64,000 nt of DNA from an uncultured Chloroflexia bacterium (GTDB lineage: Bacteria > Chloroflexota > Anaerolineae > JAAYZQ01): contig CAVOXA010000010.1 of assembly GCA_963700285.1 (NCBI GenBank), forward strand, positions 832,001 through 896,000. The letters run 5' to 3'. This document shows positions 26,637-52,803 of the stretch, piece by piece. The position numbers and the translations under genes were made by a program. Position 1 is the stretch's first letter. Each line of letters begins with the position of its first letter. A model generated the notes under the pieces. That model was not told the DNA's origin. It saw nothing but the letters and a program-made list of their open reading frames with translations, and did not search any database.

Positions 26637-27689
26637 CTAGTCCTGGTTTAGGGCGGTGCTGAGGTTCTCGCTAAGCGCTTTGGCTTCGTCCAAAGCCTCG
26701 GCCTGGGTCCAGAGGAGGATCCCGCGGCGTCCGAAAAAGCCCACCAGGTCAAGGCTGTATTGCAGCAAGTCGGGTGGATTGCCCTGGGCAAAGTCCCAGG
26801 AGTAGTATCTGAGGCACAACGCGGTCTGGCCGCCGGTGATTTCCCGTACTTTTGCCCAGTCGTTCTGCGGCGCGACGAGGTCGAGCCCTCGCAGGCCCGG
26901 GGTCTCTAGCATACCGGGCAGCACGTGCACGATGTCGCCGCAGGAGTGCAGCACAGTACCGCCAAAGGCCTCCGAGAGGCGAGCGTTATAGGGCAGACCA
27001 AACTCGCGGTAGGTACGGGGGGACATGACGGCCGCGGTGTCGTCGCTGATACGGATGCCCAGGTCGGGGGGCAGGTACCAGGGCTCGTGGGACAGGGAAA
27101 AGAGCCGCTCGATCCGTCGCATTTGCAGTTGCACGAACCGGATCGTGGCCTCCGTTACCTTTTCCAGCAGGACGTGAACCTCCCTGGGACAAAGCAGCGT
27201 GGCCGTGATAAAGGCGCTGTACTCCCAGATCAGCGAGGCGGTCACCAGCGGGGAAGGTACATTGACCAGCCGCAGGGGCAAGTCGCTGTGGGCCTGGAGA
27301 TAGTCGATGCGCTCTAGAGCCAGTGTGTTCATACCTGAGGTGGCCGGATCGGGCATCTCTAGTGCGTACACGTCCTGAGGATCGCCGCCAATGAGGGGTT
27401 TGATCCAGGGGTCGGCAGTAGGATCGGTGACCCACTCACAGCCAAAGGCTGCGGCCACAACACCGATGCCCAGGTTGGGCTTTAGGTTGGGGATGAAATA
27501 GTCATCCACCTCGGCCAGTTCGCGAAAGTGTTGTTCCTGCCAGGCCAGGTCAGCGGCCACATCGTCGAGGAACTGGGTGGTGGCATGGTGGGACTGGCCG
27601 ACCTCGATCATGAAGGGGACCTGATCGCTGTCCTCCAGCAGCCAGGTGTCGCGGATCACTGCTCGTTTTTGTGCCTCGGTCAAGGGCAT
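26637..27689 (-). CDS. Uroporphyrinogen decarboxylase/MtaA-CmuA superfamily protein
   Basis: SPLVTA, ISDD..VMSPRTYREFGLPY, metal motif LHSCG. Confidence 0.82.
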   Translation of the reverse strand: MPLTEAQKRAVIRDTWLLEDSDQVPFMIEVGQSHHATTQFLDDVAADLAWQEQHFRELAEVDDYFIPNLKPNLGIGVVAAAFGCEWVTDPTADPWIKPLIGGDPQDVYALEMPDPATSGMNTLALERIDYLQAHSDLPLRLVNVPSPLVTASLIWEYSAFITATLLCPREVHVLLEKVTEATIRFVQLQMRRIERLFSLSHEPWYLPPDLGIRISDDTAAVMSPRTYREFGLPYNARLSEAFGGTVLHSCGDIVHVLPGMLETPGLRGLDLVAPQNDWAKVREITGGQTALCLRYYSWDFAQGNPPDLLQYSLDLVGFFGRRGILLWTQAEALDEAKALSENLSTALNQD

Positions 27690-27704
27690 GATGCCCTCCT
27701 TCCT

Positions 27705-28751
27705 TTAGAGCCAGTTGGCACCGGCTCTGCGCATAAGGTCAGGGATGTCTGCTGGCCGGCCGGTCTCGCCCGACTGGACCGCACCCAGGACTACGGCCAG
27801 GGCGCTGAGCGCTTGCCGGGCGCCCACTTCGGCCTGCCCGCCAGTGCGAACCGCGCGCGAAAAATCGACCAGCGCTTCCTGGATCATCGCAATGGGGTCG
27901 GCGAAGGAGGCCGGCGGGACCACCCAATCTTCCGGTTGGCCGTCCAAAGGTTGCCCTTCGAAGCTCAGTCCCCTGTAGCGATCATATACACCCACGGCCG
28001 CATCGCCATAGATGCGGATCCAGGCTGCCGGGGCCGAGGCATAGCCCGAGCCCAGGTAGCCCAGCATGCCATTCTCAAATTCTAGCAGCGTGACCGTCGT
28101 GTCGTCAATGGGGGCGGCCAGGAAACGGTGCTTCTGCCAGCCCTGAACCCGTACGATGGGGCCCAGCCAGTATTGCAGCGTGTCGATGTGATGGATGCCG
28201 ATCTGGATCAGCGGCCCGCCTGGGCACTCGCTCCGCTCCCAGCGCCATTCGTTGGGCTCAATACGGACGCCGGTGCTAGAGGAGATGTTAGCATCGACCA
28301 TCAGCAGCTGGCCCAGTGCGCCTCGTTCCAACAGCTCTTTCATTCGACGCTGCGGACGCTCCCAGCGGCACAGGTGATCGGTGCCCAGTACCAATCCCGC
28401 CTGTTCGACAGCCTTGACCACATCGACACCCTCTTCCACTGTCGCCGTGATCGGTTTGTCAACAAAGACGTGCTTGCCATGCTCGACGGCCAGCAGGATC
28501 TGTTCGTGGTGAACGCGGTTCGGGGTGATGAGGGCGACCGCTTCTAGATCCTCGCGGTTCAGCATGTCTTGGTAGCTGGGCAGCGGCTGGTAGCCGTACC
28601 TGGCTGCGAATGCCTGGCGGGTCGCCTCGGTGCGGGCAAAACAGTGGGTGATCTCTACTTCGGGTGTGGCGGCTGCGGCCTCAGCCACCCGCTCTCCCCA
28701 GTAGCCCAGCCCAACCAGGCCGAGCCGGACAGGATTCTGCTTTAGATCCAT
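27705..28751 (-). CDS. Gfo/Idh/MocA-family oxidoreductase
   Basis: GLVGLGYWG, TPNRVH, GKHVFVDKP, GGPLIQIGIHHID. Confidence 0.92.
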   Translation of the reverse strand: MDLKQNPVRLGLVGLGYWGERVAEAAAATPEVEITHCFARTEATRQAFAARYGYQPLPSYQDMLNREDLEAVALITPNRVHHEQILLAVEHGKHVFVDKPITATVEEGVDVVKAVEQAGLVLGTDHLCRWERPQRRMKELLERGALGQLLMVDANISSSTGVRIEPNEWRWERSECPGGPLIQIGIHHIDTLQYWLGPIVRVQGWQKHRFLAAPIDDTTVTLLEFENGMLGYLGSGYASAPAAWIRIYGDAAVGVYDRYRGLSFEGQPLDGQPEDWVVPPASFADPIAMIQEALVDFSRAVRTGGQAEVGARQALSALAVVLGAVQSGETGRPADIPDLMRRAGANWL

Positions 28752-28819
28752 GCTATTTGGTCCTCCTTCTGTGAAAGCGCGCTGATGAACCTACAACTTG
28801 ATCAGGCAATAGATGAACA

Positions 28820-28923
28820 CGTCATTCTGAGCGTAGCGAAGAATCTCTTCTGCGCTTTTCAACTAATTCCATTTGACGAAGTGGAGATTCTTCGCCTCCG
28901 CTGCGCTCCGGCTCAGAATGACG
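28820..28923. repeat. REP-like inverted repeat element
   Basis: CGTCATTCTGAGCGTAGCGAAGAATCTC ... GAGATTCTTCGC...GCTCAGAATGACG; a half-copy GCTCAGAATGAC also lies at 26610-26621. Confidence 0.85.
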
Positions 28924-29029: not shown

Positions 29030-30349
29030 TCAGCGTGCCATCCCGGCCAGCACCGCGTCAAACTGTTCCAGTGCCCAGTCTATGTCCTCGAGGGTGTGGG
29101 CGCCGCTGATGCCTGAATGGCCAATGGCGTGGCCGATGGTTTGAAAGTAGATGCCCCGCTGGAAGCAGCCTCGCACAAACCGGTGCATCATCTCGCTATC
29201 CAGTTTGACCGCCTCCTGGTAGTTGTGCACCGGTTCATCGATGCCAAAATAGATGCCAAAACGCGCGCCCAGACCCTGCACGCGCCCGGGCAGGCCATGT
29301 TTGGCAAAGAGTTGGTTCAGGCCTTCGTAGAGACGGCCGGCCAGGACGCGAATGTGCGGATAGAAGCTGGGCCGACCGAGTTCCCCAAGGGTGGCCAGCG
29401 CGGCCAGCACCCCGAATTGATGGCCGCTGTAAGTTCCGCTCTGAGATACCACCCCCAATGGGGCCAGTTCGTCCATGATCCCGGCCTTGCCGGCCAGGAT
29501 GGCGATGGGCACGCCGTTGGCAACCGCTTTGGCCAGCGTGCAGAGGTCGGGCGTGATGCCATAGTAGCCCTGCATGCAGTCCACGCCCGTGCGAAAGCCG
29601 GACAGGATCTCGTCAAAGATCAGCACAATGCCCTGCCGGGCTGTCACGTCGCGCACGTGGGCCAGAAAGCCGGGATCGGCGGGGATACAGCCCGAGTTGT
29701 AACAGACCGGCTCCATGATGACGGCCGCGATCTCGCTCCCCTCCAGGGCGATGGCCTGGCCAAAGGCGGCCGCATCATTCCAGGGCACGATGGTGACGAG
29801 ATTGCCAAACTCCTCCGGCACGCCAGCCGTCAGGGGAGTCCCCCTGCTGAACTTGACCTCGTCCGTCAGGCTATGGCGGGGACCATAGTAGATCAACTCG
29901 TGCATGCCGTGAAAGTGACCTTCAAACTTGAGGATCTTGGGACGCTGGGTGTACGCCCGCGCCAGGCGGAGGGCGACAAGCGTAACCTCAGTTCCGGAGG
30001 GCAGGTATCGAACCCGTTCTGCGCAGGGGATGACCTCACAGATCTGTTGGGCCAGCCGGGCCGTGTATTCGGTCTCGCAGCCGCAGATCAGGCCCATGTC
30101 CAGTACCTTTTCCACGGCCTGGCGGAGGGCGGGATGGTTGTGACCCAAGATGGTGGCCCCGTGGGACAGGTTGAAGTCCAGGTAGCGGTGTCCGTCGACG
30201 CCCCACAAGTAGGCGCCGTCTCCCCGCTCAAAGTAGGCGGGATGGCCCAGACTGCCGTTGAACCGGCCGGCCGCGCCAACGCCGCCTACCAGGTACTCCT
30301 GGGCGAATTCGTAGAGCGGGGCGTTTTCTGTGAATGTGGTGTCTTGCAT
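29030..30349 (-). CDS. Class III PLP aminotransferase, glutamate-1-semialdehyde aminomutase-like
   Basis: SGTE, KFEGHFHG, IFDEILSGFR, PDLCTLAKAVANG; start ATG 30349. Confidence 0.9.
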   Translation of the reverse strand: MQDTTFTENAPLYEFAQEYLVGGVGAAGRFNGSLGHPAYFERGDGAYLWGVDGHRYLDFNLSHGATILGHNHPALRQAVEKVLDMGLICGCETEYTARLAQQICEVIPCAERVRYLPSGTEVTLVALRLARAYTQRPKILKFEGHFHGMHELIYYGPRHSLTDEVKFSRGTPLTAGVPEEFGNLVTIVPWNDAAAFGQAIALEGSEIAAVIMEPVCYNSGCIPADPGFLAHVRDVTARQGIVLIFDEILSGFRTGVDCMQGYYGITPDLCTLAKAVANGVPIAILAGKAGIMDELAPLGVVSQSGTYSGHQFGVLAALATLGELGRPSFYPHIRVLAGRLYEGLNQLFAKHGLPGRVQGLGARFGIYFGIDEPVHNYQEAVKLDSEMMHRFVRGCFQRGIYFQTIGHAIGHSGISGAHTLEDIDWALEQFDAVLAGMAR

Positions 30350-30390: not shown

Positions 30391-32031
30391 CTATTCCTTG
30401 GGCAGTGTAGGGTCTTCGCGCGTGATTACCTCCAGCAGGGCGGCTCGACCAGATCCAACCTGCTGAATGCACCGCTTCAGGGCGGGTTGAATCTCCTCAG
30501 GCTGTTCGACGCGCTCCGCATATCCCCCCAGAGCTTCCGCCACTTGGCTGTAGCGGTTGCCCGGCATAAAGCGGAGTCGGTAGCGTTCGGACGAGACGGG
30601 GAGCAACTGATCATAGCCCCCCAACCTCCCGTTGTTTAGGACCACGGTCAACACGGGTATTTGGTTGCGCACAGCGGTCTCGAAATCCATCCCCACCATG
30701 CCAAAAGCTGCGTCACCCATCACATTGACGGAGAGCCAGTCTGGCCGAGCGAGCTTTGCTCCCATCGCCAGCCCCAGGCCGGTGCCCAGTTGGGTCGACT
30801 TGCCCCATCCCAGGTACGTTCTGGCGGCGATGGCCTCATAGAAAGGCAGCATCTGGTCTCGGGGATTGCCTGCATCGTGGGTTACTACTGTCGACCGGCG
30901 GTCAACCGCGCGCATTAGCTCCCAGACGACCCGATAGGGGTTGATGGGCACTTCATCAGAGGTCAGGCGTGGCATCCAGGCCCGCATAAATTGATCGCGT
31001 ACCACCCGGACCTCGCGGATCACCCCATCCTGCCCCCGCCGGCCGTCGGGCCCGGTCTGCGCCTGGACCCGTTCTATCATTTGTTGGAGGACGGCCCGGG
31101 CGTCACCAATCACCCCGATGGAGATCGAGTAATCCTTGCTGAGGTCGCGCTCGTCGATGGTGATCTGCCCCATCACCTTTCCGGGCGGGATGGGAGTCAC
31201 AAAGCTCGAGCGAGTGAAGCTGGTGCCAATCCCCAGCACGAAATCCGCCTTGTCCAGAAAGTGGGTCACCGTGCGGGGACGGGAGTTGCCGCCAGCGCCC
31301 AGGGCCAGCGCGTGGTCTTCGGGGAAAGCGCTCTTGCCGTTCATCGTGGTCATCACTGGAAGCTGAACCAACTCGGCCAAGCCTCGCAACTCTTCCCACG
31401 CCTGCGCAAAGTGAATGCCCTGCCCGGCCACGATCACTGGGCTCCGCGCCTTTAGCAATGCCTCGACGACCTCATTGACCAGTGCGGGGTCTCCTAGCGG
31501 AGCAGAACGCTTTGGCGGTAAATATTCAAAACGGTCATCGGCCAATTCCTCGGCCAGTACGTCTCGAGGCACCTCCAGCACAACCGGTCCAGGACAGCCG
31601 TTGCGCAACAGCGTGAAGGCCCTCTGCAGCATCTGCGGGATCCGTTCGACCAGGTTGATCTGGTCAGTCCACTTGGTGATGGGTTGGAAGCTGGGCAGCA
31701 CGCGGAAATTGGGCGAGACTCCCTGGGACGGTCGGGCATAGGCGCCGGGAAGCAAGAGGATTGGGCTGCTGTCTGAGTATGCCTGGGCCACCGCGCCAAA
31801 GGCATTCTCGATGCCTGGGCCGTCCTGCACCAGGCAGACCCCGATGCGCCGGCCGTTGGTCAGCCGTGAATAGCCATCGGCGATGTTGATCGCTACCCGT
31901 TCGGTGCGCGCCATGATGGGGCGGATGCTCTGCCCGGCACAGGCGTCGATGATCTCATTATGGGGAAAACAGGTTACGAACTCGACTGCTTCTTGCTTCA
32001 GAACCCGAGCGATCGCGTGTGACCCTTGCAT
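30391..32031 (-). CDS. ThDP-dependent enzyme (acetolactate synthase/decarboxylase-like family)
   Basis: ARTER..ADGYSR, GPVVLEVPRD, MGDAAFGM...VLNN. Confidence 0.9.
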   Translation of the reverse strand: MQGSHAIARVLKQEAVEFVTCFPHNEIIDACAGQSIRPIMARTERVAINIADGYSRLTNGRRIGVCLVQDGPGIENAFGAVAQAYSDSSPILLLPGAYARPSQGVSPNFRVLPSFQPITKWTDQINLVERIPQMLQRAFTLLRNGCPGPVVLEVPRDVLAEELADDRFEYLPPKRSAPLGDPALVNEVVEALLKARSPVIVAGQGIHFAQAWEELRGLAELVQLPVMTTMNGKSAFPEDHALALGAGGNSRPRTVTHFLDKADFVLGIGTSFTRSSFVTPIPPGKVMGQITIDERDLSKDYSISIGVIGDARAVLQQMIERVQAQTGPDGRRGQDGVIREVRVVRDQFMRAWMPRLTSDEVPINPYRVVWELMRAVDRRSTVVTHDAGNPRDQMLPFYEAIAARTYLGWGKSTQLGTGLGLAMGAKLARPDWLSVNVMGDAAFGMVGMDFETAVRNQIPVLTVVLNNGRLGGYDQLLPVSSERYRLRFMPGNRYSQVAEALGGYAERVEQPEEIQPALKRCIQQVGSGRAALLEVITREDPTLPKE

Positions 32032-32077: not shown

Positions 32078-33604
32078 TCATCCGTATACAACCGGTTCAG
32101 GGATCCATTCAAAGTCCTCGAAGGGGTAGAGCGGCCAGGGTCTGCGTTGAAAGGGCAGCGAGGTCAGTTCGGGGCTGGTCACACCGGGCCCAGCCACGAA
32201 CAGGATGCGCCGGGCGATAGGCGCGTAGCTGGCCTTGAACGTGGAATTGGACTTGGTGAGCACGATCCAGGCCTGCGCGGGCTCCAGGCCGACGGCCCTG
32301 TAGAAATCGGGCGAATGGGTCCAGGTCCTTTCGCTGGTGATGACGACCTTTAACCGGTCCACCTCTAGCACCGACGTCAGGCCCATGTGCATGATCAGGC
32401 CCGTGTAGGACGGACCCGAAATCCGAAACCGGCCGTCGAACAAGGTGCGCAGCACGCCTTCGAGGTGGATCGGCTGGTTGAACCGGCGGTCCATCTGGCC
32501 GCCAACCCTGAGGGAGACCCGTTCTCCAAGGTTGTGCCGGGCGGCCGCCCGGGCAGCAGCCGCGTCCACGACTGTCACCAGCGCGTCGCCCGGCAGGCGC
32601 TGCTCAACCTCCAACAGTTGCCGCAGCAAACGCGTTGCATCGCCGGTCGCCCCGCCGGCAATGGCATCAGCCGAGTCAGAGATCACAAAGGGCCCCGCCG
32701 ATGATACGGCGCCCCCGGCCAAGGCCAGGTCGACGGCCTGCTCGACCGAGTGATACTCGGCGCTGAATGCGCCCCTCAGATTCCAAAGCTGCTGAGCCAG
32801 AGACGCTGCCGTATCGGAAGCCCTGGCAGCAGTATCACCACTCGACTCCTCAAAGACCACCAAGATGGTTGCACCCAGGTGGGATACATCCAGCCAGGGC
32901 TGCGGGTAAAAGATGGAGGTGGAGAGAATTCCCGCTCGCTCCCGTTCCGTGCGAGCTGCCTGGAGGAGATCCGCTGCGGGACCAGGCTCGCTGGTGTCTA
33001 CCGCTTCGGCAGGCAGATCCAGGGGTACTCGGACAAACGCCGTCCTCGGCTTGACTTGCTCGCGGACGATTTTGACCAGCAACTCGGCGGCCCGCACGCC
33101 TGTCTCGAATAGGTCGGTGTGGGGGCAGGTGTCAAAGCCGACGACCGCGTCGGCGTGCTCCAGCAGGCCGGAGGTTGGAACGGCATGGAGATCCAGCGAT
33201 ACCACCACCGGAATGACGCCAGATATCGTACGAAGCCTGGCGAGCAGGTCGCCCTCAGGGTCATCAAAGCCCTCCACGAGCATGGCCCCATGCAGGGCCA
33301 GCAGGATGCCGTCCGCCGGGAGCAGGGATTCAACCCGCTGGAGCAACTCCTCGCTCAGCACCTCATAGGCACCCTGCTCGACCGGTCCCGAGGACATGGC
33401 CATGGTCGCCAGGGTGGGCGCCATCTCTGCGCCTTCGCGCCGGGCCACAGCATAGAAGCCGCCTATCTCGGTGCCCGTACCGGCCAGGTGGTTCTCGACC
33501 TCGGCCCCCCGGTACAGGTGGTAGCTGCCAAAGTCGTGGAGGCCGGTCCGCAGCGGGGAGAAACTGTTGGCCTCCTGCTTGAATTCAGCGCAGATGAAGC
33601 GCAA
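32078..33604 (-). CDS. M81/MlrC-family metallopeptidase
   Basis: QEANSF, LHGAM, SLDLHA, PHTD, DSAD..GG, KS. Confidence 0.88.
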   Translation of the reverse strand: MRFICAEFKQEANSFSPLRTGLHDFGSYHLYRGAEVENHLAGTGTEIGGFYAVARREGAEMAPTLATMAMSSGPVEQGAYEVLSEELLQRVESLLPADGILLALHGAMLVEGFDDPEGDLLARLRTISGVIPVVVSLDLHAVPTSGLLEHADAVVGFDTCPHTDLFETGVRAAELLVKIVREQVKPRTAFVRVPLDLPAEAVDTSEPGPAADLLQAARTERERAGILSTSIFYPQPWLDVSHLGATILVVFEESSGDTAARASDTAASLAQQLWNLRGAFSAEYHSVEQAVDLALAGGAVSSAGPFVISDSADAIAGGATGDATRLLRQLLEVEQRLPGDALVTVVDAAAARAAARHNLGERVSLRVGGQMDRRFNQPIHLEGVLRTLFDGRFRISGPSYTGLIMHMGLTSVLEVDRLKVVITSERTWTHSPDFYRAVGLEPAQAWIVLTKSNSTFKASYAPIARRILFVAGPGVTSPELTSLPFQRRPWPLYPFEDFEWIPEPVVYG

Positions 33605-44635: not shown

Positions 44636-45130
44636 TTATGTCTCAAGTTGCTTATACATCACAAGGGCATCCACAAATCCAAGCCGTCGATGCCGGAAAG
44701 CCTTCAGCAGGGTACCAACAATTTCAAACCCCTGTCTCTTCCAGAGCCGGACAGCACCCTCGTTTGTGGAAACAACCAGATTGTACTGCATCGCCCGAAA
44801 GCCTCGCGAAACGGCCTCACGCTGCGAATGCTTGCACATTTTGGACGCAATCCCCATGCCCCGGGCTTCTTCTGCAACGATATAGCCACAGTTGCAGACG
44901 TGAGCCCCAAGGGCAGGTTGGTTTGGTTTGATGTAGTAGGTGCCAAGAACTTTGTTGTTTCCATCCACAGCCACAAAGGTTGCAGAAGGCATCTCAACCC
45001 AAGCCTGGTGTGCCTCCTTCTCGGTGATATCCGGTGAAAAAGGGTAGGTCTCACCAGCCCGGAATACAGGTCTGATGACTTGCCACGTGACCGTCCAATC
45101 CTTCGGTTCAAATGGTCGAATCTCGATCAT
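44636..45130 (-). CDS. GNAT-family N-acetyltransferase
   Basis: HVCNCGY, ARGMGIA motif A, MQYNLVVSTN..AVRLW..GF. Confidence 0.9.
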   Translation of the reverse strand: MIEIRPFEPKDWTVTWQVIRPVFRAGETYPFSPDITEKEAHQAWVEMPSATFVAVDGNNKVLGTYYIKPNQPALGAHVCNCGYIVAEEARGMGIASKMCKHSQREAVSRGFRAMQYNLVVSTNEGAVRLWKRQGFEIVGTLLKAFRHRRLGFVDALVMYKQLET

Positions 45131-45401
45131 GTGTAGCTCCGTGAGACATTTCGGGTGCGGATTCATGTGGCGCCAAGCCGCCAGTTGGTCCAGAGTTGAA
45201 CCACGCCGTGTAGATTGTAGCCGTTATTGGAGTTTCATGCAAGTGCTTGCTGGGGGAGCCGCGCCTGTCGAGGGGCTGTCAGGTACTACTTGAGCCGGTG
45301 CACAGCTACGCCAGTGGCACGAACAGCCGCAGCACAGCCCCTCTGTTGGCAATCTTCTGTGAGGGCCAGGGTCATAATGGTCCAAAACCAAGTGGCTGCC
45401 T

Positions 45402-45430
45402 TTGACGAGAAAACGTTTTCATGGTATCCT
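45402..45430 (+). promoter_or_regulatory. Promoter with LacI-type operator in the spacer (Ldh_2-UroD-AKR operon)
   Basis: TTGACG-N17-TATCCT; perfect palindrome GAAAACGTTTTC at 45409-45420. Confidence 0.75.
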
Positions 45431-45499: not shown

Positions 45500-46540
45500 G
45501 TGTTGCCCGTTATCGGGGTTCCCAAGCTCCATGATCTGTCCTTCAAGTTCCTGAGGAAAGCGGGCGCTCCCCCCGCCGTTGCGGAACGCGTTGCCCAAGC
45601 GCTGGTGCAAAGCAGCCTCAAGGGGGTCGATTCCCACGGCGTAATGCGACTCCCGCAGTATCTTGAGCATGTCGAGGAAGGTCTCGTCATCCCCGATGCA
45701 CTGCCGGTGCTCGTCCGCGAAACGGCATGTACGGCGGTTGTTGATGGCCAGCGGGGCTTTGGCCACGTGGCGGCCGAGTTTTCCACGCGGATTGCGCTGG
45801 AGAAGGCACGGGTGCACGACCTGGCGGCGGTAACGCTGCATAATACGCGGCACATCGGGCGCGTCGGCGAGTATGTGGAGATGGCCACCGATGCCGGGTT
45901 CATCGGCTTTGTCTTTTGCAGCGCTCTCTCGCAAGTGGCGCCCCATGGAGGGCGGGACAGAATACTGGGTACCAACCCCGTCGCCATCGGCATCCCCTCC
46001 GATGGTGAGTTCCCCTTTGTACTGGATTTCGCCACGTCCGTGCTCTCGGAGGGCAAAGTGCGGGTGGCCAGGGACAAGGGCATTGAGCTGCAACCCGGCG
46101 CTATTCTCGATGCCCGAGGCCAGCCGTCCATCAGGCCCGAGGATCTCTACGAGGGCGGTGCCTTGCTCCCGCTGGGAACCTACAAGGGCTACGGGCTGGG
46201 CCTGGCTGTGCAGATCCTCGGCTCCTTGCTGGCCCAGGGCGGGACGGCACTGATCAACCAGCCGACGGTGGGCAATGGCGCGCTGTTTATCGTACTGAAT
46301 CCAGGGTCCTTCTGCGATGCAGCGGATCTGCGCGCGCAGACGGAGGAGTTGTGTGACGCGGTCAAAAGTTCGTCCCTTTGCGATGGTTTCGACGAGATCC
46401 TGATACCTGGTGAGCCGGAGTATCGGGCCGAGCGCCAGCGAGGACAGGATGGGATTCCGATTGCAGAGGCTACCTGGCAGCGCTGGCGAGAGGCTGGCTT
46501 CAGCATAGGCATGGAGCCGGCTGACTTTGAGATAGACTAG
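45500..46540 (+). CDS. Ldh_2-family (type 2 malate/lactate, ComC/AllD/DpkA-like) oxidoreductase
   Basis: GVDSHG, DGQRGFG, HIGR, GTNP, DFATS, YKGYGL, IPGE. Confidence 0.9.
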   Translation: MLPVIGVPKLHDLSFKFLRKAGAPPAVAERVAQALVQSSLKGVDSHGVMRLPQYLEHVEEGLVIPDALPVLVRETACTAVVDGQRGFGHVAAEFSTRIALEKARVHDLAAVTLHNTRHIGRVGEYVEMATDAGFIGFVFCSALSQVAPHGGRDRILGTNPVAIGIPSDGEFPFVLDFATSVLSEGKVRVARDKGIELQPGAILDARGQPSIRPEDLYEGGALLPLGTYKGYGLGLAVQILGSLLAQGGTALINQPTVGNGALFIVLNPGSFCDAADLRAQTEELCDAVKSSSLCDGFDEILIPGEPEYRAERQRGQDGIPIAEATWQRWREAGFSIGMEPADFEID

Positions 46541-46598: not shown

Positions 46599-47684
46599 GT
46601 GCATTCTCGTGAAAGGCTGCGACGGGCCTACTATCTGGAAGAGATGGACCGGCCTGCGGTGTATAGTCGCACGTCCAGTGTTCCGTGGGATGACTCAAGT
46701 TATGACAAATTAGGGGCATTCCTGGCCGCTGAGTGTGATCAGAAGGCGCACTGGGATGGCCGGGCGTTCGAAACAGCCTACCTGGTTAGCCACGCGGTCG
46801 AACCTTATTCCGAGGATTTCGAGCGGCAGATCACCATCCTACACGCACCCGCGGGCGATCTTTTGGCTTCGAAACGGGTTGGGCTCAAGTACCAGCCAGG
46901 GCTCCAGGAGACCTTTTTTATCAAAACACGGGAGGACGCCGCAAAGTACCTTTCGCTTCCCCTACCCCAACGGGTTGGGGATGTAGGTTCCTTCTTTGCC
47001 GTTGACCAGCAGGTTGGCGAGCGAGGGATCACCGACGTGTCCCTGGGTTTTAACCCCGCCGGCTTTGTCGCAGAACTCTGCGGTTCGGAAACCTTTGCCC
47101 TCATGTCCGTGACGGACCGTGACGTGCTCCATGCGTTGTGCCAGCGGCAGATGGAGATCATGCTGGAAACGGCCAAGTTTCTACTGGGTCAGGGGGTAGG
47201 CCCCTATTTTTCGATGGCGGGGGAGGAGTACCTCGTGCCACCTCTGCACGGCCCGACCGACTTTGGCGATTTTAACGTGAGGTACGACAAACCGATCGTT
47301 GATCTGATCCACGATGCTGGAGGAAGGGTACACATCCACTGCCACGGCTCGGTCAAAAGGGTTATGGCGGGCTTTCTCGAAATGGGGGTTGACGTACTGC
47401 ATCCTTTTGAGGCGCCGCCGATGGGCGACATCACACCGGCGGAGGCGAAAGAGGTGATACGGGGCAGGATGTGCTATGAGGGCAACATCCAGATCCATCA
47501 TATGTACGAGCATAGCCCGGAGCAAGTGCGCGAAGAGACCATCGCACTCATCGATGATGTTTTTGACGATGGACTGGGCCTCATTGTCTGTCCAACGGCG
47601 TCGCCCTACATCCCCGGCGAAGGGGAAGTATGTTTGGATCGGTTTAGCGCCATGATCGCAGCGGTCCGCGATTGGCAAGGATAG
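46599..47684 (+). CDS. Uroporphyrinogen decarboxylase/MtaA-CmuA superfamily protein
   Basis: SRERL..DRP, IHCHG, HPFEAPPMGDIT, EGNI. Confidence 0.8.
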   Translation: MHSRERLRRAYYLEEMDRPAVYSRTSSVPWDDSSYDKLGAFLAAECDQKAHWDGRAFETAYLVSHAVEPYSEDFERQITILHAPAGDLLASKRVGLKYQPGLQETFFIKTREDAAKYLSLPLPQRVGDVGSFFAVDQQVGERGITDVSLGFNPAGFVAELCGSETFALMSVTDRDVLHALCQRQMEIMLETAKFLLGQGVGPYFSMAGEEYLVPPLHGPTDFGDFNVRYDKPIVDLIHDAGGRVHIHCHGSVKRVMAGFLEMGVDVLHPFEAPPMGDITPAEAKEVIRGRMCYEGNIQIHHMYEHSPEQVREETIALIDDVFDDGLGLIVCPTASPYIPGEGEVCLDRFSAMIAAVRDWQG

Positions 47685-47775: not shown

Positions 47776-48744
47776 ATGAAAAAGGTAGCTTTTGGCAAGA
47801 CCGGCGAAGAACTATCGGAGATGTGTCTGGGTACCATGATGTTCGGCGAGCGATGCGACCAGGCCGAATCAGATCGGATTCTGTCTGCGGCGTTGGAAGC
47901 CGGCGTCAACTTTGTGGACACAGCCTCGCTCTACGCGGGTGGGGTGACGGAGGAGATCCTCGGACACATACTAAAAGGGCGCCGGGACAGAGTCTTTCTG
48001 GCCAGCAAAGTCCGCCTTGATATGGCGAGCGTCGTAGAGAGCATCGAAGGTAGCCTGAGACGCCTGCAGACAGACTGCTTGGACCTGTACATGATCCATG
48101 CCCCCATGCGCGGCATGGATCCGGTCAAGATCATGAGGGACCTGGACCAGGTGGTACGGGAGGGCAAGGCTCGCTTTGTGGGCTGCTCCAACTATCCGGC
48201 CTGGTTGGTGACCCACAGCAACTGCATCGCCCAGCAGCAGGGCTGGCCCCAGTTTGTCTGCAACCAGGTCCCCTTCAGCCTCATCGAACGCCCGGCTGAC
48301 ATCGAGATCTTGCAGCAAGCGTATGTCCAGAACTTGGGGATCATGGCCTACCGCCCCATGTGCATGGGGCTGTTGGCCGGCAAATATAGACCCGGCGAAC
48401 CCCTGCCCGAGGACTCGCGGTCTGCGACTGACAAACGGCCCGCCTGGCTCCTGGGCGAGTTTGCCGACGCCATCTCGGGCCTGCTCCAGATGGCCGAGGA
48501 CATGGGGGTGCAGCCAGCAGATCTGGCGGTTGCCTGGTTGCGGGCCAATCCCGGCATCACCACGCCCATCATCGGGGTGAGCTCGCTGCGCCAGTTGCAG
48601 GCCAACCTCTCCGCCTTTGAGTTTGATTTAACCGATGAGCAATACCAGCAACTGGACGAGATGTTTGCTCTGAGAGACCTTGGTGGGGAGATCACGCCCT
48701 TTTTCCAGCCCCTCCGACGGGACCTGGAGCTGGTCCGGCGCTAG
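47776..48744 (+). CDS. Aldo/keto reductase
   Basis: LGTMMFG, DTASLY, SLRRLQTDCLDLY, GCSN. Confidence 0.93.
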   Translation: MKKVAFGKTGEELSEMCLGTMMFGERCDQAESDRILSAALEAGVNFVDTASLYAGGVTEEILGHILKGRRDRVFLASKVRLDMASVVESIEGSLRRLQTDCLDLYMIHAPMRGMDPVKIMRDLDQVVREGKARFVGCSNYPAWLVTHSNCIAQQQGWPQFVCNQVPFSLIERPADIEILQQAYVQNLGIMAYRPMCMGLLAGKYRPGEPLPEDSRSATDKRPAWLLGEFADAISGLLQMAEDMGVQPADLAVAWLRANPGITTPIIGVSSLRQLQANLSAFEFDLTDEQYQQLDEMFALRDLGGEITPFFQPLRRDLELVRR

Positions 48745-48795: not shown

Positions 48796-48796
48796 G

Positions 48797-50107
48797 TTAG
48801 CGTATCTCTCTGAACACGTCCTCGATGATGTTCAGGGCCTCGTCAATGTCTTCCACGGTGTGTTGTGAGGAGTAGCCGTGGTGCATGGGGGTCTTGTGGG
48901 CATAGTCGTGCAGATAAAGCCCCCTCTCCACGCAGCCGAGTAGGAACTGGACCTCCATCTCGCGGTCGTTTTTGACCGCCTGCCGGTAGTTGGAGACCGG
49001 TTCTGTGACCCCGAAATAGATGCCAAAACGGGCCCCAACCCCCTGTACCACGCCGGGCACGCCAGTGACCTGGAGCAGTTGGGTCATACCGCTGTACAGC
49101 CGCTCCGCCAACAGGTTAATGTGGTCATAGAAGCCCGGCCTGGCAATCTCTTTCTGGCAGGCCAGCGCGCCCAGGACGGCCGGGATATGCCCGGTATAGG
49201 TGCCGCTGATAACCGTATGCCCCATGGGGTTGAGCACGTTCATGATCTCGGTCCTACCACAGATGGCAGCGATGGCGACCCCACCGCCCAGGGCCTTGGC
49301 CAGGGTGCACATGTCCGGCGTCACGCCATAGTACTCCTGGGCGCCGCCCCGGCACATGCGGTAGCCGGACAATACCTCGTCAAAGATCAGTACGATGCCC
49401 GTTTCGTCACAGATCTGGCGAACCTGGCGCAGAAACTCGGGGTCCGAGGGGACACAACCCTGGTTGTAGGAGATGGGCTCCAGGATGACGGCGGCCAGCT
49501 CATGCCGGTGGGCTTCGATCGCTGACGAAAAGGCGTCGATATCATTGAAGGGTACCACGACGATCAGGTCTGACAAAGCTTCTGGCATGCCGTCGGTATC
49601 GGGCATCGGCGCCACCGTACCATCATCGCGCAGGTCGCCCAGTTCCGTGGAGCAATTGTACCACAAGTAGTCGTGCATGCCGTGGAAATGACCTTCAAAC
49701 TTGAGGATCTTGGGCTTGCCCGTGTAGGCTCGGGCAACGCGGATGGCGCCAAGGGTGGCCTCGGTACCGCTGTTCTGCAGGCGGATCTTTTCCGCGCTGG
49801 GAACGGCATCAAAGATCAGCTCGGCCAACTCGGAGTGGTACTCTGTCTCAGCGTTGGCAATCATCCCGATCTCCAGGGCCTGCTCCAGTGCTGCCCGGAT
49901 GGCAGGGTGATTGTGCCCCAAGAAGGTCGCACCGCTCCCTGTGAAAAAGTCAATGTACTCGTTGCCGTCCACATCCCAGAAACGGGACCCCTGGCCGTGG
50001 GTCAGGTAGAGCGGGCGTTTGAGCAAGGGGTTGTAGCGCCCTCCGGCTACAGCTCCGCCGATGAGGTGTTCCTGGGCTGAAGCGAACAACTGATCCGATT
50101 TTCGCAT
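48797..50107 (-). CDS. Class III PLP aminotransferase, GSA-aminomutase-like (paralog of 29030-30349)
   Basis: NSGTEAT, KFEGHFHG, FDEVLSGYR, TLAKALGGG; start ATG 50107. Confidence 0.9.
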   Translation of the reverse strand: MRKSDQLFASAQEHLIGGAVAGGRYNPLLKRPLYLTHGQGSRFWDVDGNEYIDFFTGSGATFLGHNHPAIRAALEQALEIGMIANAETEYHSELAELIFDAVPSAEKIRLQNSGTEATLGAIRVARAYTGKPKILKFEGHFHGMHDYLWYNCSTELGDLRDDGTVAPMPDTDGMPEALSDLIVVVPFNDIDAFSSAIEAHRHELAAVILEPISYNQGCVPSDPEFLRQVRQICDETGIVLIFDEVLSGYRMCRGGAQEYYGVTPDMCTLAKALGGGVAIAAICGRTEIMNVLNPMGHTVISGTYTGHIPAVLGALACQKEIARPGFYDHINLLAERLYSGMTQLLQVTGVPGVVQGVGARFGIYFGVTEPVSNYRQAVKNDREMEVQFLLGCVERGLYLHDYAHKTPMHHGYSSQHTVEDIDEALNIIEDVFREIR

Positions 50108-50132
50108 TTGTGCTCTCCTTGAAGTGATAGCC

Positions 50133-51338
50133 TTAGCCAGCAGCCGCCACCATGGCCAGCGCACCCTGCGGTATCAGGTTCAAGCGGGGGCCGGATGCCA
50201 GTTCTTCCAGGACTGACAGCGCTTCTCCCAGGTCGCGGAACAGCAGGCTGCCGGGCGGCATCAAATAGTCCACCTCTTTGTCCCGCAGGTTGGGCGAGTA
50301 GACGATCAACCTGCGCGAGTCCAGGCTCTTTTCCATGGCCCGAGCGTGCAGATCCTCATAGTAGCCGCCCCGGCTGCCGATGTAGTGGTGGCCGGCGCCC
50401 TCGGGACAGGCCGCTACGAGCAGGATAGGGCCACCGGGCACGACGCTCATGGTCCCCGTGCCGGCCAGGATAGCCTTGCCGGCCTGGATAAAGTCGCACT
50501 CTACGGGAGAGGCGCCGATGACGGCCGCGTCGGCCAGAGGGGGCGCTGCGACCTGATAGACTTCCCGGGCAAAAGGCACTGCCCGGCGGTGGGTCAGGCT
50601 GTAGTCCCCGGCGAACAGGCCCACGATCTCACACCTTTCGTTGATGACCGAGTCCACGACAAAGTCCAGACCGCACATCCCGGCAATGTCCTCGATGTCC
50701 GCCCGGTAGTCGCCCACCTCCTCCGAGTCCGCGGCCCCGCGGGGGCGCACCGAATGGTGGTAGGTGACGGTCTTGGCCCCGCAGACACCAGGCATGAGGG
50801 TCTTGGCCCCACCGCTAAAGCCAGCGTGGGTGTGAGGGATGACGCTGCCGATGGTGACCTTGATTTCAGAGCGGTTGACGAGGCTGTTGAGATAGACAGG
50901 TGTGCCAAGCTCACTGATACCCAAAAAGTCAAGCTGGTCGTAAAAGTTGTGGTTGTAGGTCTCAAAGCGATCGACGACCTCGGTGCCCAACTTGGCACAG
51001 AAGTCGTGGCCGAATTGGGGACGGTGCGCGGCGATGGCGGAAAAGAACCGGATCTCCCCCTCAGCGATGCCTGCCTCCAGCAGTTCATCCACAACCAGGG
51101 GGGTGACCAAGTGCGTTGGCGTGGGGCGCGTGGCGTCTTCGACGATGACGGCGGCGCTCCTTTTGCCGCGGGCCAAGTCTCTCAGCCGCGGTGTGCCGTG
51201 CGGCGAACGGAAGGCTGCCACCCGCTGCTCGGGCGTTAGAGCGGGGGCGCCCTGAATGGAACACTCGTGGACGCGCCAGGCATCGGATAGCGGTAGCGCC
51301 AACTGGCCATCAGCGTAAGGTATGGATAACGTGGGCAT
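50133..51338 (-). CDS. LarA-family nickel-pincer-dependent racemase/epimerase
   Basis: EDATRPTP, AAHR, PHTHAGFSGGAK, ACPEG. Confidence 0.88.
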   Translation of the reverse strand: MPTLSIPYADGQLALPLSDAWRVHECSIQGAPALTPEQRVAAFRSPHGTPRLRDLARGKRSAAVIVEDATRPTPTHLVTPLVVDELLEAGIAEGEIRFFSAIAAHRPQFGHDFCAKLGTEVVDRFETYNHNFYDQLDFLGISELGTPVYLNSLVNRSEIKVTIGSVIPHTHAGFSGGAKTLMPGVCGAKTVTYHHSVRPRGAADSEEVGDYRADIEDIAGMCGLDFVVDSVINERCEIVGLFAGDYSLTHRRAVPFAREVYQVAAPPLADAAVIGASPVECDFIQAGKAILAGTGTMSVVPGGPILLVAACPEGAGHHYIGSRGGYYEDLHARAMEKSLDSRRLIVYSPNLRDKEVDYLMPPGSLLFRDLGEALSVLEELASGPRLNLIPQGALAMVAAAG

Positions 51339-51401
51339 GGGTTCATTCCTTCATCTGTATCGCACAACGCATTGGCAGGGCTGTAGATTCGGATACCCCG
51401 G

Positions 51402-52733
51402 CTAGGTTGGCAGCTCCCAGCCGCGCGGACCGGTGCTGCTGGCCAGCGCGCTGTCGAGGACGATCTGTCCCTGGTTCGCGACGAGCTTGCCGTCGCGAAA
51501 GACCATGGCCACCTTCCGCAGGGAGTGGATATCGGCCAGGGGATCTCCATCCAAGAGGATCAGATCGGCGCGTAGCCCCTCTTTGACCGCGCCGATCTCT
51601 CTGTCCAGGCGCAGGGCCTGAGCTGCCCGCTCTGTGACCATGCTGATAGCCTCCAGCGGCGTGAACTCTGCCCAGCGTACCATGATCTCTATGGCGCGGG
51701 CCATCTCCTCAAAGCCAGGCCAGAGGTCAGTACCAGGCCAGGGACCAAAGGCCGCGTCTGTGCCCAGGAACAGGCTGACCCCCTGCTCTCGCATGTAGTG
51801 TAGGAACGGCCAACGTACCTGGAGCATCTTTAGCCACCATTCCTCTTCGGCAGAGCGCCCTTGGCCATGCTCATCTGGGAATAGGTAGGGCCGGGGGATG
51901 ATGGCGTGGTCGACGCGAACATCGTTGGCCACCATGAATTCAACCGCCTTTTTGTCAGGCACGGTCGATCTGGCATCACGGCCGATCCAGGAACAGTGTT
52001 CGATGGTATCCACTCCCACCTCGGCGGCGAGCCGAATGCTGTCGGTGGAGATGGCGTGCACGGCCACCTGCAAACCCAGGCGGTGGGCGTCATCGACGGC
52101 GGCGTCCAACTCCTGGGCCGTGTATTGGGATCGGGAAATGTTTGTTCCTGGCGTCGTGGTTCCACCGCTGAGGATAATCTTGATAAAGTCAACGCCTTTG
52201 CTGGCCAGGGTTCGTACGGCTTTGACGATTTCTATGGCGCTGTCCACCCCCCAGTCGGTATAGATGTGCCCGCCGGTGGTTGTGATGGGACGGCCGCTGG
52301 CCAGGATACGCGGCCCGACAAAGTTGCCCGTGTCGATCATGTCGCGCAGAGCCAGTATCGAAAAGTCGTCGGCGCCACAGTCCCGCAGCGTCGTCACCCC
52401 GGCGGCCAGGGCGGTCTGGGCATAGTGGCCAGCGCGTACCAACTGGCGTTCCAATCCCTGGGCTGAGACCAGGTGCTGCCCGACTGAGCGAGGGGCATAG
52501 AGCAGTTTGTCCCAAGCGAGGTGTACGTGGCTGTCGATCAGCCCGGGCATCAGCGTCAAGCCACCGGCTTGCAGGCTGGGGATCCCATGGGGAACGGATA
52601 TTTGGTCCGATGGTCCGGCCGCCGCGATCCGGCCGGACAGATCCACGAGAACGGTGCCGGAAGGGATAGGTTTGGAACCCGTGCCATCCAATAGCTGGGC
52701 GCCTGTAATGGCAAGCTTGAGGGTCGTCTCCAT
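51402..52733 (-). CDS. Metal-dependent amidohydrolase (Xaa-Pro dipeptidase-like)
   Basis: PGLIDSHVH, GVTTLRD, VHA, TIEH, GTDA, GLRADLILLDGDP. Confidence 0.92.
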   Translation of the reverse strand: METTLKLAITGAQLLDGTGSKPIPSGTVLVDLSGRIAAAGPSDQISVPHGIPSLQAGGLTLMPGLIDSHVHLAWDKLLYAPRSVGQHLVSAQGLERQLVRAGHYAQTALAAGVTTLRDCGADDFSILALRDMIDTGNFVGPRILASGRPITTTGGHIYTDWGVDSAIEIVKAVRTLASKGVDFIKIILSGGTTTPGTNISRSQYTAQELDAAVDDAHRLGLQVAVHAISTDSIRLAAEVGVDTIEHCSWIGRDARSTVPDKKAVEFMVANDVRVDHAIIPRPYLFPDEHGQGRSAEEEWWLKMLQVRWPFLHYMREQGVSLFLGTDAAFGPWPGTDLWPGFEEMARAIEIMVRWAEFTPLEAISMVTERAAQALRLDREIGAVKEGLRADLILLDGDPLADIHSLRKVAMVFRDGKLVANQGQIVLDSALASSTGPRGWELPT

Positions 52734-52760
52734 GTGTCTCCCCGCTTTGAGGCAATGGTC

Positions 52761-52803
52761 TGTAACCGTTTACAATTGTACTTGTTACCCTGTCTGGTGT
52801 CAA
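52761..52803 (-). promoter_or_regulatory. Promoter with LacI-type operator (amidohydrolase-LarA-aminotransferase operon)
   Basis: Minus strand TTGACA-N17-TACAAT followed directly by TGTAAACGGTTACA (52774-52761). Confidence 0.8.

Follow-up and report, generated by a model that had tools for sequence, protein, structure and literature searches.

A 14-bp LacI-type operator, newly found here, is common to a 26-kb catabolic gene cluster of an uncultured Chloroflexia bacterium and to two distant loci of the same genome. The cluster occupies positions 26637..52803 of the window, by which we mean the whole stretch of 64,000 nucleotides analysed. On the sequence evidence it is very likely that the operons bearing this palindrome form one LacI-type regulon. 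That the regulon serves the catabolism of sugar acids or amino-sugar acids is probable, as is its action on several related substrates rather than on one; we somewhat favour the fuller reading, in which it would be an anaerobic, repressor-controlled funnel that converts decorated amino-sugar and uronic acids to pyruvate and C3 units.

Gene content of the cluster

Profile searches (Pfam, NCBIfam) identified 18 enzyme genes and a LacI gene: URO-D (three), Aminotran_3 (two), Gfo/Idh/MocA (two), ThDP, MlrC/M81, AOR, sulfatase, HpcH, DHDPS, creatininase, Ldh_2, AKR, Lar_N, Amidohydro_1 and LacI (Table 1). Every family named in an earlier note on this DNA lies where that note placed it, so the gene set is real, but its count of 17 enzyme genes plus LacI was wrong, as the families that it listed make 18. 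Two genes absent from its list encode a P-loop protein, which is probably outside the regulon, and a GNAT acetyltransferase, which was not found at the corresponding place in G001, a genome of the same genus. The start of the Ldh_2 gene was moved from 45227 to about 45500 because a promoter and operator occupy 45402-45430. A REP-like hairpin insert, with 13 similar places in the host genome, lies between AT1 and Gfo1; the gap between these genes is shorter in G001 than in the host.

No characterised enzyme is close to any cluster enzyme (best approximately 35-40% identity), and nearly all score under the NCBIfam cut-offs; the ThDP enzyme scores 790 bits for PRK06154 (cut-off 607). All regulon enzymes are cytoplasmic in appearance.

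Table 1. Features of the cluster and its operators (window positions, except operators 5 and 6)
Feature	Position	Strand	Basis or remark
UroD1, URO-D/MtaA-fold protein, H248-S-C250	26637..27689	-	Pfam; left end is synteny breakpoint
Gfo1, Gfo/Idh/MocA NAD(P) oxidoreductase	27705..28751	-	Pfam
REP-like hairpin insert	28820..28923		
AT1, HemL-like class III transaminase, MlrC-linked clade (not HemL)	29030..30349	-	NCBIfam
ThDP enzyme, PRK06154 family	30391..32031	-	NCBIfam; family-level assignment only
MlrC/M81 metallo-amidase, predicted N-deacylase partner of AT1	32078..33604	-	Pfam
Aldehyde:ferredoxin oxidoreductase (AOR)	33608..35467	-	Pfam
Cys-type S1 sulfatase (C52-IPAR)	35495..36928	-	nearest solved relative PDB 7OZ8
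Operator 1, TGTAACCGGTTTCT	36970..36983		directly downstream of TTGACA-17-TAAACT promoter (37020-36992, minus), sulfatase operon
Gfo2, Gfo/Idh/MocA oxidoreductase	37017..38123	-	Pfam
LacI-family repressor with HTH and effector domains, recognition helix VSVATVSR	38187..39230	-	Pfam
UroD2, URO-D/MtaA-fold protein, His-x-Asp at 270	39546..40670	-	Pfam
HpcH/GarL-type class II aldolase	40782..41552	-	Pfam, NCBIfam
Creatininase-family hydrolase, metal motifs intact	41592..42425	-	Pfam, NCBIfam
DHDPS/KDG-aldolase-family class I aldolase, Tyr156 and Lys185 present	42449..43399	-	Pfam, NCBIfam
Operator 2, TGTAACCGTTTTCA	43422..43435		within TTGACA-17-TACAAT promoter (43448-43420, minus)
P-loop protein, function unassigned	43595..44557	-	NCBIfam; upstream of operator 2
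GNAT acetyltransferase	44636..45166	-	Pfam
Operator 3, AGAAAACGTTTTCA	45408..45421		within TTGACG-17-TATCCT promoter (45402-45430, plus)
Ldh_2-family 2-hydroxyacid dehydrogenase	45500..46540	+	Pfam; corrected start
UroD3, URO-D/MtaA-fold protein, His-x-His at 245	46599..47684	+	Pfam
Aldo-keto reductase (AKR)	47776..48744	+	Pfam
AT2, HemL-like class III transaminase, amidohydrolase-linked clade (not HemL)	48797..50110	-	NCBIfam
LarA-superfamily 2-hydroxyacid racemase/epimerase, catalytic motifs present	50133..51338	-	NCBIfam
Amidohydrolase, N-acyl-amino-acid carboxypeptidase-like, predicted AT2 deacylase partner	51402..52733	-	Pfam
Operator 4, TGTAACCGTTTACA	52761..52774		abuts TTGACA-17-TACAAT promoter (52803-52775, minus)
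Operator 5	host contig C10:1486354		divergent promoter; unchanged in G001
Operator 6	host contig C10:1608701		before glycerate-kinase operon; unchanged in G001

Operators and extent of the predicted regulon

In the window, the palindrome WGWAAMCGKTTWCW, with a central CG, overlaps or directly adjoins a sigma-70-like promoter at each of the four operon heads, and all four of these promoters are near consensus. The 7.05 Mb host genome has seven sites, six of them unchanged in G001; across these six, 84 of 84 operator bases are identical, as against 474 of 534 (89%) in the flanks, with one relative compared. The reversed pattern gave no match in either genome, and sites with one mismatch occur at chance level. 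As the pattern was built from the window's own sites, the zero count obtained in shuffled sequence is inflated. The recognition helix of the cluster's LacI is unique among the nine LacI genes found, and its three nearest homologues among 400 genomes of the phylum (48-52%) have versions of the operator with one or two mismatches at their own promoters, where they head sugar or sugar-acid operons. The earlier proposal of LacI control is thus supported as a prediction, and the shared operator is stronger evidence than gene clustering that the cluster genes belong together.

The earlier note had treated the 26 kb as the whole unit; the regulon reaches two other loci. Since two further conserved sites add an importer/lyase locus and a glycerate-kinase locus, the cluster would make up the greater part of a single predicted regulon with some 45 genes. 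At operator 5, an operon for a family-5 ABC importer and a sulfatase diverges from one for a GT4-fold protein and a PL17-like lyase; operator 6, whose promoter is weak, precedes genes for a MOFRL glycerate kinase, a glyoxylate/hydroxypyruvate reductase and an HpcH protein. The regulon totals three sulfatases, four URO-D proteins, four aldolases, three Gfo enzymes and two deacylase-transaminase pairs, and also holds C45, M20 and M24-like enzymes. MlrC, the amidohydrolase and the C45, M20 and M24-like enzymes are equally suited to peptides or N-acyl amino acids. Among solved structures, the importer's binding protein is nearest to proteins that bind peptides, glutathione and opines, and not to those that bind oligosaccharides. 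No sugar-acid dehydratase was found among the regulon genes scanned. Beyond the importer operon, at 0.5-1.5 kb, there is a fructokinase-like ROK gene, so a phosphorylative branch is possible.

Occurrence in other genomes

Only one other genome, G001, carries the gene set. There 55 bp separate UroD1 from the end of the importer/lyase locus, which directly abuts the cluster, and five of the six conserved operators fall in one contiguous block; UroD3 and LarA are read in broken frames. One sulfatase and one dehydrogenase kept in the G001 regulon are absent from the host, where they have been lost. The term island, used earlier in the sense of foreign DNA, does not hold: GC is 0.608 against 0.610, the window has no tRNA, and in tetranucleotide distance the cluster ranks at the 18th percentile of 261 host-genome windows, under the median. 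The only border-type element, 5.7 kb rightward, is a broken ISL3 transposase.

The same families are numerous in the host genome (AOR 19, sulfatase 18, Gfo 28, class-III AT 23, MlrC 9, LarA 7, and 52 URO-D matches at about 48 loci). No other 26-kb stretch of it has more than 7 of the 15 families; the cluster's own 15 of 15 is circular, because the family list was drawn from it. The whole set was not found outside the genus, where the genes travel as separate modules of two to four genes, so that the scattering of orthologs named earlier as a refutation is partly seen, beside the clustering in G001. The cluster is a mosaic of widespread, uncharacterised modules, namely MlrC with a HemL-like transaminase, amidohydrolase with a second transaminase, and GT4 with lyase, which occur across Chloroflexota, NC10, Acidobacteriota, Spirochaetota and KSB3. 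Homologues of the ThDP enzyme, the creatininase-family hydrolase and UroD2 are found elsewhere, not beside these partner genes.

Enzyme families

AT1 and AT2 score 366 and 369 bits for TIGR00713 (HemL; cut-off 527), as against 625 bits for the host's true hemL, near hemA on contig C1. The Tyr of FEGCYHG and a C-terminal Glu are important in HemL; the Tyr is Phe in AT1, AT2 and 78 of 79 relatives, the Glu has no match in AT1, and the N-terminal Arg is kept in 77 of 79 relatives. HemL was rejected as an identity for both on the score, the Phe and the absence of tetrapyrrole context. Amidohydrolase is present in 15 of 21 AT2-clade loci and MlrC at 26 of 42 AT1-clade tips, and within these loci and tips the partners are never swapped; by gene neighbourhood, each transaminase clade thus appears to have its own amide-hydrolase partner. 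Such loci often also contain TRAP transporters and the uronate genes UxuA/UxaC.

In UroD1 the His-x-Cys is invariant in 46 of 46 sequences; this is the zinc motif of MtaA/CmuA-type methyltransferases. UroD2 has His-x-Asp and UroD3 His-x-His, and no third Cys is conserved. The top fold match of UroD1 is MtaA (TM 0.69, vs 0.58-0.68 for HemE), although these scores barely separate the two, and the proteins score 33-63 bits for TIGR01463 (cut-off 235). They are more likely to be zinc methyltransferase-like than decarboxylases. The host encodes acetyl-CoA synthase and has 16 corrinoid-domain matches, none within the regulon.

The best solved match of the sulfatase is PDB 7OZ8 (E 9e-79), the S1_46 sulfatase BT1918, which acts on 3-O-sulfo-GlcNAc (bioRxiv 10.1101/2021.07.23.453482) and has ring-binding R143 and N174 and N-acetyl-binding Y94, R327 and Y408. 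In a manual mapping of the equivalents, where the numbering is shifted by two residues, the C/S-x-P-x-R motif, Arg143 and Asn174 are kept and two of the three N-acetyl-binding residues are missing (Ala at R327; no HATCY motif for Y408), an aromatic being kept around Y94. Two anaerobic sulfatase maturases are encoded by the host. The lyase has invariant HNF, SYH and GHGH motifs and scores 78 for NF042990 (cut-off 1400); its relatives are found in the company of sugar-acid genes (MR/MLE, DHDPS, HpcH, Ldh_2, lactonase).

The LarA-superfamily protein has the catalytic Arg, His, His, Lys and His and the NPN-binding motifs by motif match, not by alignment to LarA1, using residues named in PMC11770544. 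It falls under all four LarAH cut-offs (best 231 vs 500 bits); larC is present in the host genome, read in split frames.

Proposed route and alternatives

The family-5 importer would take up a small decorated glycoside or oligomer, from which the three sulfatases would remove sulfate esters. The lyase, its GT4-fold partner and the Gfo and AKR redox enzymes may then yield a 2-keto-3-deoxy-type acid by elimination, which would stand in for the missing dehydratase. MlrC, the amidohydrolase and the creatininase-family and C45 hydrolases would free amino groups, to be passed by AT1 and AT2 to a keto-acid acceptor, while the URO-D/MtaA proteins might transfer methyl groups from O or N to corrinoid proteins whose genes lie elsewhere, and from these to the Wood-Ljungdahl pathway. 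LarA, Ldh_2 and the 2-hydroxyacid dehydrogenases could adjust C2 stereochemistry and redox state before DHDPS- and HpcH-type aldolases release pyruvate and an aldehyde, the latter oxidised by AOR; decarboxylation of a 2-oxo acid might fall to the ThDP enzyme, and glycerate, in which the C3 units would end, would enter glycolysis through glycerate kinase.

The catabolic and anaerobic character claimed in the earlier note is supported, and our searches, like its author, matched no described pathway. Its substrate, a sulfated or N-acylated amino sugar or sugar acid, is still the best class; the single route that it assumed is unproven. A linear pathway for one heavily decorated compound, such as a sulfated, methylated, di-N-acylated or amidino amino-uronic acid unit of a microbial surface glycan whose two amino groups the two hydrolase-transaminase pairs would take off, seems to us unlikely. 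One operator, importer and lyase serve the whole set, which is contiguous in G001, and a single regulon that unites two distinct pairs with a C2 epimerase and an amidine-type hydrolase would suit it; however, the numbers of sulfatases, URO-D proteins, aldolases and Gfo enzymes exceed the needs of one small molecule, each module is found alone in many distant genomes, and the host has dropped two genes that G001 retains. The two deacylase-transaminase pairs and the multiple sulfatases, URO-D proteins and aldolases fit a multi-substrate funnel better.

It is similarly doubtful that amide hydrolysis and transamination of non-carbohydrate nitrogen compounds (opine-like or Amadori conjugates, modified peptides, N-acyl beta/gamma-amino acids, aminocyclitols) form the core, with sugar-acid steps secondary. 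This would account for a binding protein near peptide and mannityl-opine binders, the many amide hydrolases, the resemblance of HemL-like transaminases to beta-amino-acid and D-phenylglycine transaminases, the inosose hydrolase IolN in the creatininase family and IolG among the Gfo matches (NCBIfam), and the MlrC, AT and Dpp kits that recur in the host under GntR/IclR control (C14:905-945 kb, C1:945-975 kb), but it leaves the lyase and three sulfatases of carbohydrate-type kinship unexplained, and the LacI relatives govern sugar-acid operons. Least probable is a patchwork of unrelated paralogues under a more general catabolite-control site, with no shared chemistry implied. The family expansions of the host, the failure to find the whole set outside the genus and the motif's similarity to generic LacI/CcpA-type sites favour it; only six sites are conserved genome-wide, however, none before housekeeping carbon genes, and the end-point glycerate-kinase operon chemically suits the needs of the aldolases and AOR. 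A further reading is speculative and rather unlikely: an undescribed pathway for anaerobic recycling of sulfated, methylated, di-N-acylated or amidino amino-uronic acids from microbial surface glycans, with GT4-fold protein and lyase as a new glycoside-cleaving pair and a separate clade of HemL-like transaminases, each with a deacylase of its own, taking off amino groups.

Little has been mapped of the ways in which anaerobes recycle unusual amino sugars and uronic acids from dead cells and the matrix of biofilms. A defined operator, together with a single repressor and a single binding protein, opens the substrate of the cluster to a direct ligand screen. Its outcome would give functions to three widespread orphan modules, MlrC with AT1, amidohydrolase with AT2 and GT4 with lyase, whose genes now go under the names hemL, microcystinase-like, prolidase or heparinase, as well as to some of the many URO-D proteins by which the family has expanded in these bacteria. 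Should the set prove a loose funnel of ordinary chemistry, it would still be a well-bounded regulon of an uncultured genus.

Comparison with known systems

HemL is the closest named family to AT1 and AT2, which keep the PLP Lys and N-terminal Arg; they differ in scoring below its cut-off and in being paired with amide hydrolases, the true hemL lying elsewhere. The URO-D proteins share with HemE and the zinc methyltransferases of MtaA/CmuA and O-demethylase systems a TIM-barrel and a His-based metal motif, but are far below TIGR01463 and have no corrinoid partner in the regulon. BT1918 and heparin/GAG utilisation loci resemble the regulon in catalytic motif, ring-binding Arg/Asn and the joining of lyase with sulfatases, whereas here the enzymes look cytoplasmic, import is by a family-5 ABC system and a NagA/NagB-type route is absent from the regulon. 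The lyase has the same two-domain fold as the PL17 exo-oligoalginate lyases Alg17c and AlgL17 (TM approximately 0.7, fold comparison), but is 18-20% identical to them, with a constant GT4-fold neighbour and no alginate-locus context. The LarA protein shares catalytic motifs with the NPN epimerases of the LarA superfamily (PMC11770544), but lies outside the four LarAH models matched. The non-phosphorylative Entner-Doudoroff route of Thermoproteus/Sulfolobus (PMC2063504) has in common with the regulon sugar dehydrogenases, an aldolase of the DHDPS family, an enzyme that oxidises aldehydes and a glycerate kinase of the MOFRL type, as well as one predicted control; the KDG-type aldolase, aldehyde-oxidation and glycerate-kinase families are present here below equivalog cut-offs. 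The regulon differs in being bacterial and without a gluconate dehydratase-type gene, and adds sulfatases, a lyase, deacylases, transaminases, LarA and URO-D proteins.

Content and setting of the cluster

Pfam and NCBIfam scans recovered every enzyme family named in the earlier note at its position, although that note counted 17 enzymes and its own list holds LacI and 18 enzymes; it leaves out two mid-cluster genes, which encode a P-loop protein and a GNAT protein. By motif matches, the catalytic motifs of the sulfatase, LarA, the amidohydrolase, the DHDPS-type aldolase, the creatininase-family protein, the ThDP enzyme and MlrC are intact. The 26-kb cluster contains neither a transporter nor a recognisable sugar kinase, and a hydropathy proxy indicates a hydrophobic N-terminus for none of its enzymes; only the binding protein and one permease of a second locus have one.

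The host (G000) is a Chloroflexota genome of 7.05 Mb that encodes two anaerobic sulfatase maturases and larC. The cluster's enzyme families are strongly expanded across this genome, so family names by themselves do not set the cluster apart. Its composition equals the genome average; this indicates a native cluster, and the suggestion of a foreign island is rejected. Atlas look-ups of the P-loop protein and of a GT4-fold protein of the second locus returned generic names only, and the P-loop protein's Atlas clusters are unnamed.

Features of the window and of related loci in the host genome (C1, C10, C14 and C15 are host contigs; L numbers are locus stretches; G001 is a relative of the same genus)
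Feature	Position	Content
Operon, site 1	window 36970	sulfatase-AOR-MlrC-ThDP-AT1-(Gfo1-UroD1)
Operon, site 2	window 43422	DHDPS-creatininase-HpcH-UroD2-(LacI-Gfo2)
Operon, site 3	window 45408	Ldh_2-UroD3-AKR
Operon, site 4	window 52761	amidohydrolase-LarA-AT2
Site 5, left	C10:1486354	GntR, family-5 binding lipoprotein (C10:1483630-1485315), two permeases, fumarate-reductase-like flavoprotein, fourth URO-D; further, one sulfatase (two in G001), second DHDPS-type protein, HAD, methyltransferase; more distant ROK kinase
Site 5, right	C10:1486354	AKR, Gfo, GT4-fold protein, heparinase II/III-like lyase, C45 hydrolase; in G001 only, a 2-hydroxyacid dehydrogenase between lyase and C45 hydrolase
After site 6		MOFRL glycerate kinase, glyoxylate/hydroxypyruvate-reductase-like dehydrogenase, second HpcH, M24-like protein, M20 hydrolase
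Seventh perfect site	C15:50486	not conserved in G001; treated as chance
Related site	C10:1945168	TGAAAACGATTTCA at start of another LacI gene; probably that gene's own operator
GT4-fold + PL17-like lyase pair	C10:1488829-1492057 (L006:18829-19944, L007:51-2057)	across many phyla, in catabolic not biosynthetic contexts
Tandem repeat	L006:5990-6670 (C10 ~1,476 kb)	~126-base unit, between sulfatase and DHDPS-type genes of importer operon
Two further kits	C14:905-945 kb, C1:945-975 kb (L092-L095)	MlrC x3, HemL-like transaminase, LarA, Dpp transporters
URO-D/MtaA-fold genes	dense at C10:440-524 kb and C14:97-120 kb	about 48 in genome; MtmB pairs (L009)
P-loop protein	window 43595-44557	no Pfam family; PRK06761-like; 94% identical in G001
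Histidine-kinase fragment	window 25640-26320 (minus)	broken C-terminal fragment, in-frame stop, at synteny breakpoint
REP-like hairpin	window 28820-28923	13 similar places in genome; directly after TTGACA element resembling amidohydrolase promoter
Transposase	window 58480-59743	broken ISL3, ahead of gyrB
Electron-bifurcating module	window 2955-21628	Succinyl-CoA-ligase-like pair, 2-oxoacid:ferredoxin oxidoreductase, HdrA/MvhD/HdrD-like genes, second HdrA-MvhD fusion

A shared predicted operator and the probable extent of the regulon

Reading of the intergenic gaps revealed the 14-bp palindrome WGWAAMCGKTTWCW at the heads of four operons, in each case overlapping or directly following a TTGAC(A/G)-17-hexamer promoter that is among the region's best-scoring promoter-like sites. 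A shuffle test gave 0 occurrences in 100, but this overstates the case, as the pattern was derived from the same sites; out-of-sample tests carry the weight. Seven perfect sites are present in G000 and seven in G001, six of them orthologous, against none in either genome for the reversed pattern used as control. The six orthologous sites are identical at 84/84 bases, compared with 474/534 in their 45-bp flanks (P ~4e-5 if sites drifted like flanks, from a single genome comparison). The order's other 21 genomes contain six perfect sites in total, in five genomes, and the control pattern has 10 matches in 23 genomes; none of these six adjoins a cluster enzyme except one distant 2-hydroxyacid dehydrogenase. 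Widening the regulon to sites with one mismatch was rejected, as their numbers are at chance level (29 vs 23 for the control in G000, 24 vs 28 in G001) and two promising ones in G000 are absent from G001.

Versions of the palindrome with one or two mismatches lie at the promoters of the three closest LacI homologues in 400 phylum genomes (48-52% identity, two from one genus), which head operons of the TctCBA-DHDPS-PfkB-SIS or sugar-ABC-FGGY type. The recognition helix of the cluster LacI differs from those of the other eight LacI proteins found. These operator data support the proposed LacI control, with the cluster LacI as the protein predicted to bind the palindrome.

The 26-kb block, taken earlier as the entire unit, is part of a larger one that extends past the window to the loci of sites 5 and 6, two conserved copies on C10. 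Site 5 lies between two divergent TTGACA promoters and has about 30 bases in common with the sulfatase promoter. In G001, the site 5 locus runs directly into UroD1, giving ~45 contiguous kb, and the site 6 operon is 35 kb from the main block; in the G000 assembly there is a synteny break exactly at the cluster's left edge (junction at window 26.3-26.6 kb). We are highly confident that the cluster and these two loci form one regulon.

Conservation as a set and as modules

Apart from G000, the entire set turned up only in G001, in the same order (84-96% protein identity, with UroD3 and LarA in broken frames); the searches elsewhere covered genome samples in which many genomes are incomplete. Of the order's 22 other genomes one has the ThDP enzyme, and a DNA search of 50 chosen genomes, scoring six candidates per genome, returned scattered single genes. 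Sulfatase relatives are present in 27/400 phylum genomes, one above 50% identity, and none of seven sulfatase neighbourhoods examined has the cluster set. UroD1 was found in 2/301 genomes of another phylum, and UroD2 (7/33) and the creatininase (2/33) among 33 hand-picked genomes. Beyond the genus, the expected co-occurrence of these families was not seen for the whole set in these samples; parts of it are conserved as modules. A full-text literature search, largely of journals open without subscription, listed no description of this gene set or its modules. A distant Chloroflexota genus, g83 of family f29, often has relatives of both the sulfatase and the lyase, at separate loci (13 and 16, respectively, of the family's 26 genomes).

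The modules centre on the two HemL-like class III transaminases, AT1 and AT2. Of 397 confirmed stretches with AT2 relatives, the 80 best were retrieved (G001 locus left out of the counts). An amidohydrolase (57-70%) adjoins the transaminase in 15/21 AT2-clade loci of Chloroflexota, NC10 and Acidobacteriota, and among all 79 loci MlrC is near in 26, DppB-like permeases in 22, LarA in five and UroD1 in four. Culturable hosts of the AT1 module exist, for example Thermalbibacter longus (locus L066). In a tree of 85 sequences (the 79 loci, after dropping frameshifted L033, plus own-genome genes), MlrC-linked loci all fall in the AT1 clade (26/42 tips; support 0.67), amidohydrolase-linked loci all fall in the AT2 clade, and in KSB3 and Spirochaetes a third clade is associated with UroD1, LarA and an Amidohydro_2. 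Through kinship these counts are not independent, and they serve as descriptions rather than statistics. The two further MlrC kits of G000 have GntR/IclR genes without the operator, and one has a SelA/DgaE-like PLP lyase.

Assignment of AT1 and AT2 as HemL was rejected, as their scores of 366-369 bits fall short of the 527-bit cut-off and the true hemL lies near hemA. Their clade keeps the PLP lysine and, in 77/79, an N-terminal arginine; phenylalanine replaces HemL's tyrosine in 78/79. The arginine would bind a distal carboxylate. This role, in keeping with the TRAP transporters in many of the loci, points to a putative amino acid or amino-sugar acid substrate.

Among 34 loci with relatives of the second-locus lyase, several of them near-duplicates, GT4 (41-60%) adjoins the lyase in 22 and a Gfo relative is present in 14; lyase-relative loci also contain MR/MLE dehydratases, DHDPS, HpcH, Ldh_2, lactonase and MFS genes. 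For the structure model of the lyase (pLDDT 83), the best match is PL17, at 18-20% identity. The pair is possibly a new glycoside-cleaving unit.

Sulfatase, URO-D proteins and LarA

The best solved match of the sulfatase is 7OZ8, one of the structures of a Bacteroides sulfatase paper (bioRxiv 10.1101/2021.07.23.453482). Six BT1918 residues map onto the 7OZ8 chain with their numbers shifted by two throughout, and His318 does not fit. On that mapping, R143 and N174 are retained in the cluster sulfatase, an aromatic residue stands near Y94, and R327 and Y408 are missing. Such variants, according to that paper, likely act on a different, unknown sulfated sugar.

The UroD1 model (pLDDT 95) has MtaA as first match and HemE as a close second. 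As MtaA is the top fold match and the HxC motif is invariant, methyl transfer appears more likely than decarboxylation. A role of the URO-D proteins as haem decarboxylases is unlikely, given the metal motif and about 48 paralogues. No corrinoid gene was found in the regulon. Genome-wide, the URO-D genes, 16 corrinoid-domain matches, the MtmB pairs and an acetyl-CoA synthase constitute a very large methyl-transfer toolkit. The LarA1 residues given in PMC11770544 are retained by the cluster LarA, which fits none of the characterised LarA subgroups.

Interpretation of the regulon

On balance, and with moderate confidence, we read the regulon as one for breaking down decorated amino-sugar or uronic acids via a mainly non-phosphorylative funnel. 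Several points count against this reading: the binding protein is of a peptide type, a ROK kinase lies nearby, each enzyme has low identity to any characterised one, and a single relative supports it. The peptide-type binding protein would favour a regulon centred on peptide/opine/aminocyclitol compounds, which we nevertheless regard as unlikely; solved relatives of this family-5 protein are uninformative on substrate. The single linear route for one compound, as the earlier note had it, seems improbable to us, and a patchwork more doubtful still. The breakdown of aminoglycosides/aminocyclitols, nonulosonic acids, mannityl opines, bacillithiol/mycothiol or glucosinolates was also considered, as a set of candidate leads. 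The operator and two ligand-binding proteins make the regulon directly testable.

The funnel reading bears comparison with the non-phosphorylative Entner-Doudoroff branch, whose steps, according to PMC2063504, include an aldolase, aldehyde oxidation and a MOFRL glycerate kinase. The regulon has candidate families for all three. No dehydratase is present among its scanned genes, and elimination by the lyase could supply a 2-keto-3-deoxy acid in its place. The system would be LacI-controlled sugar-acid catabolism, of a known kind, assembled from orphan modules.
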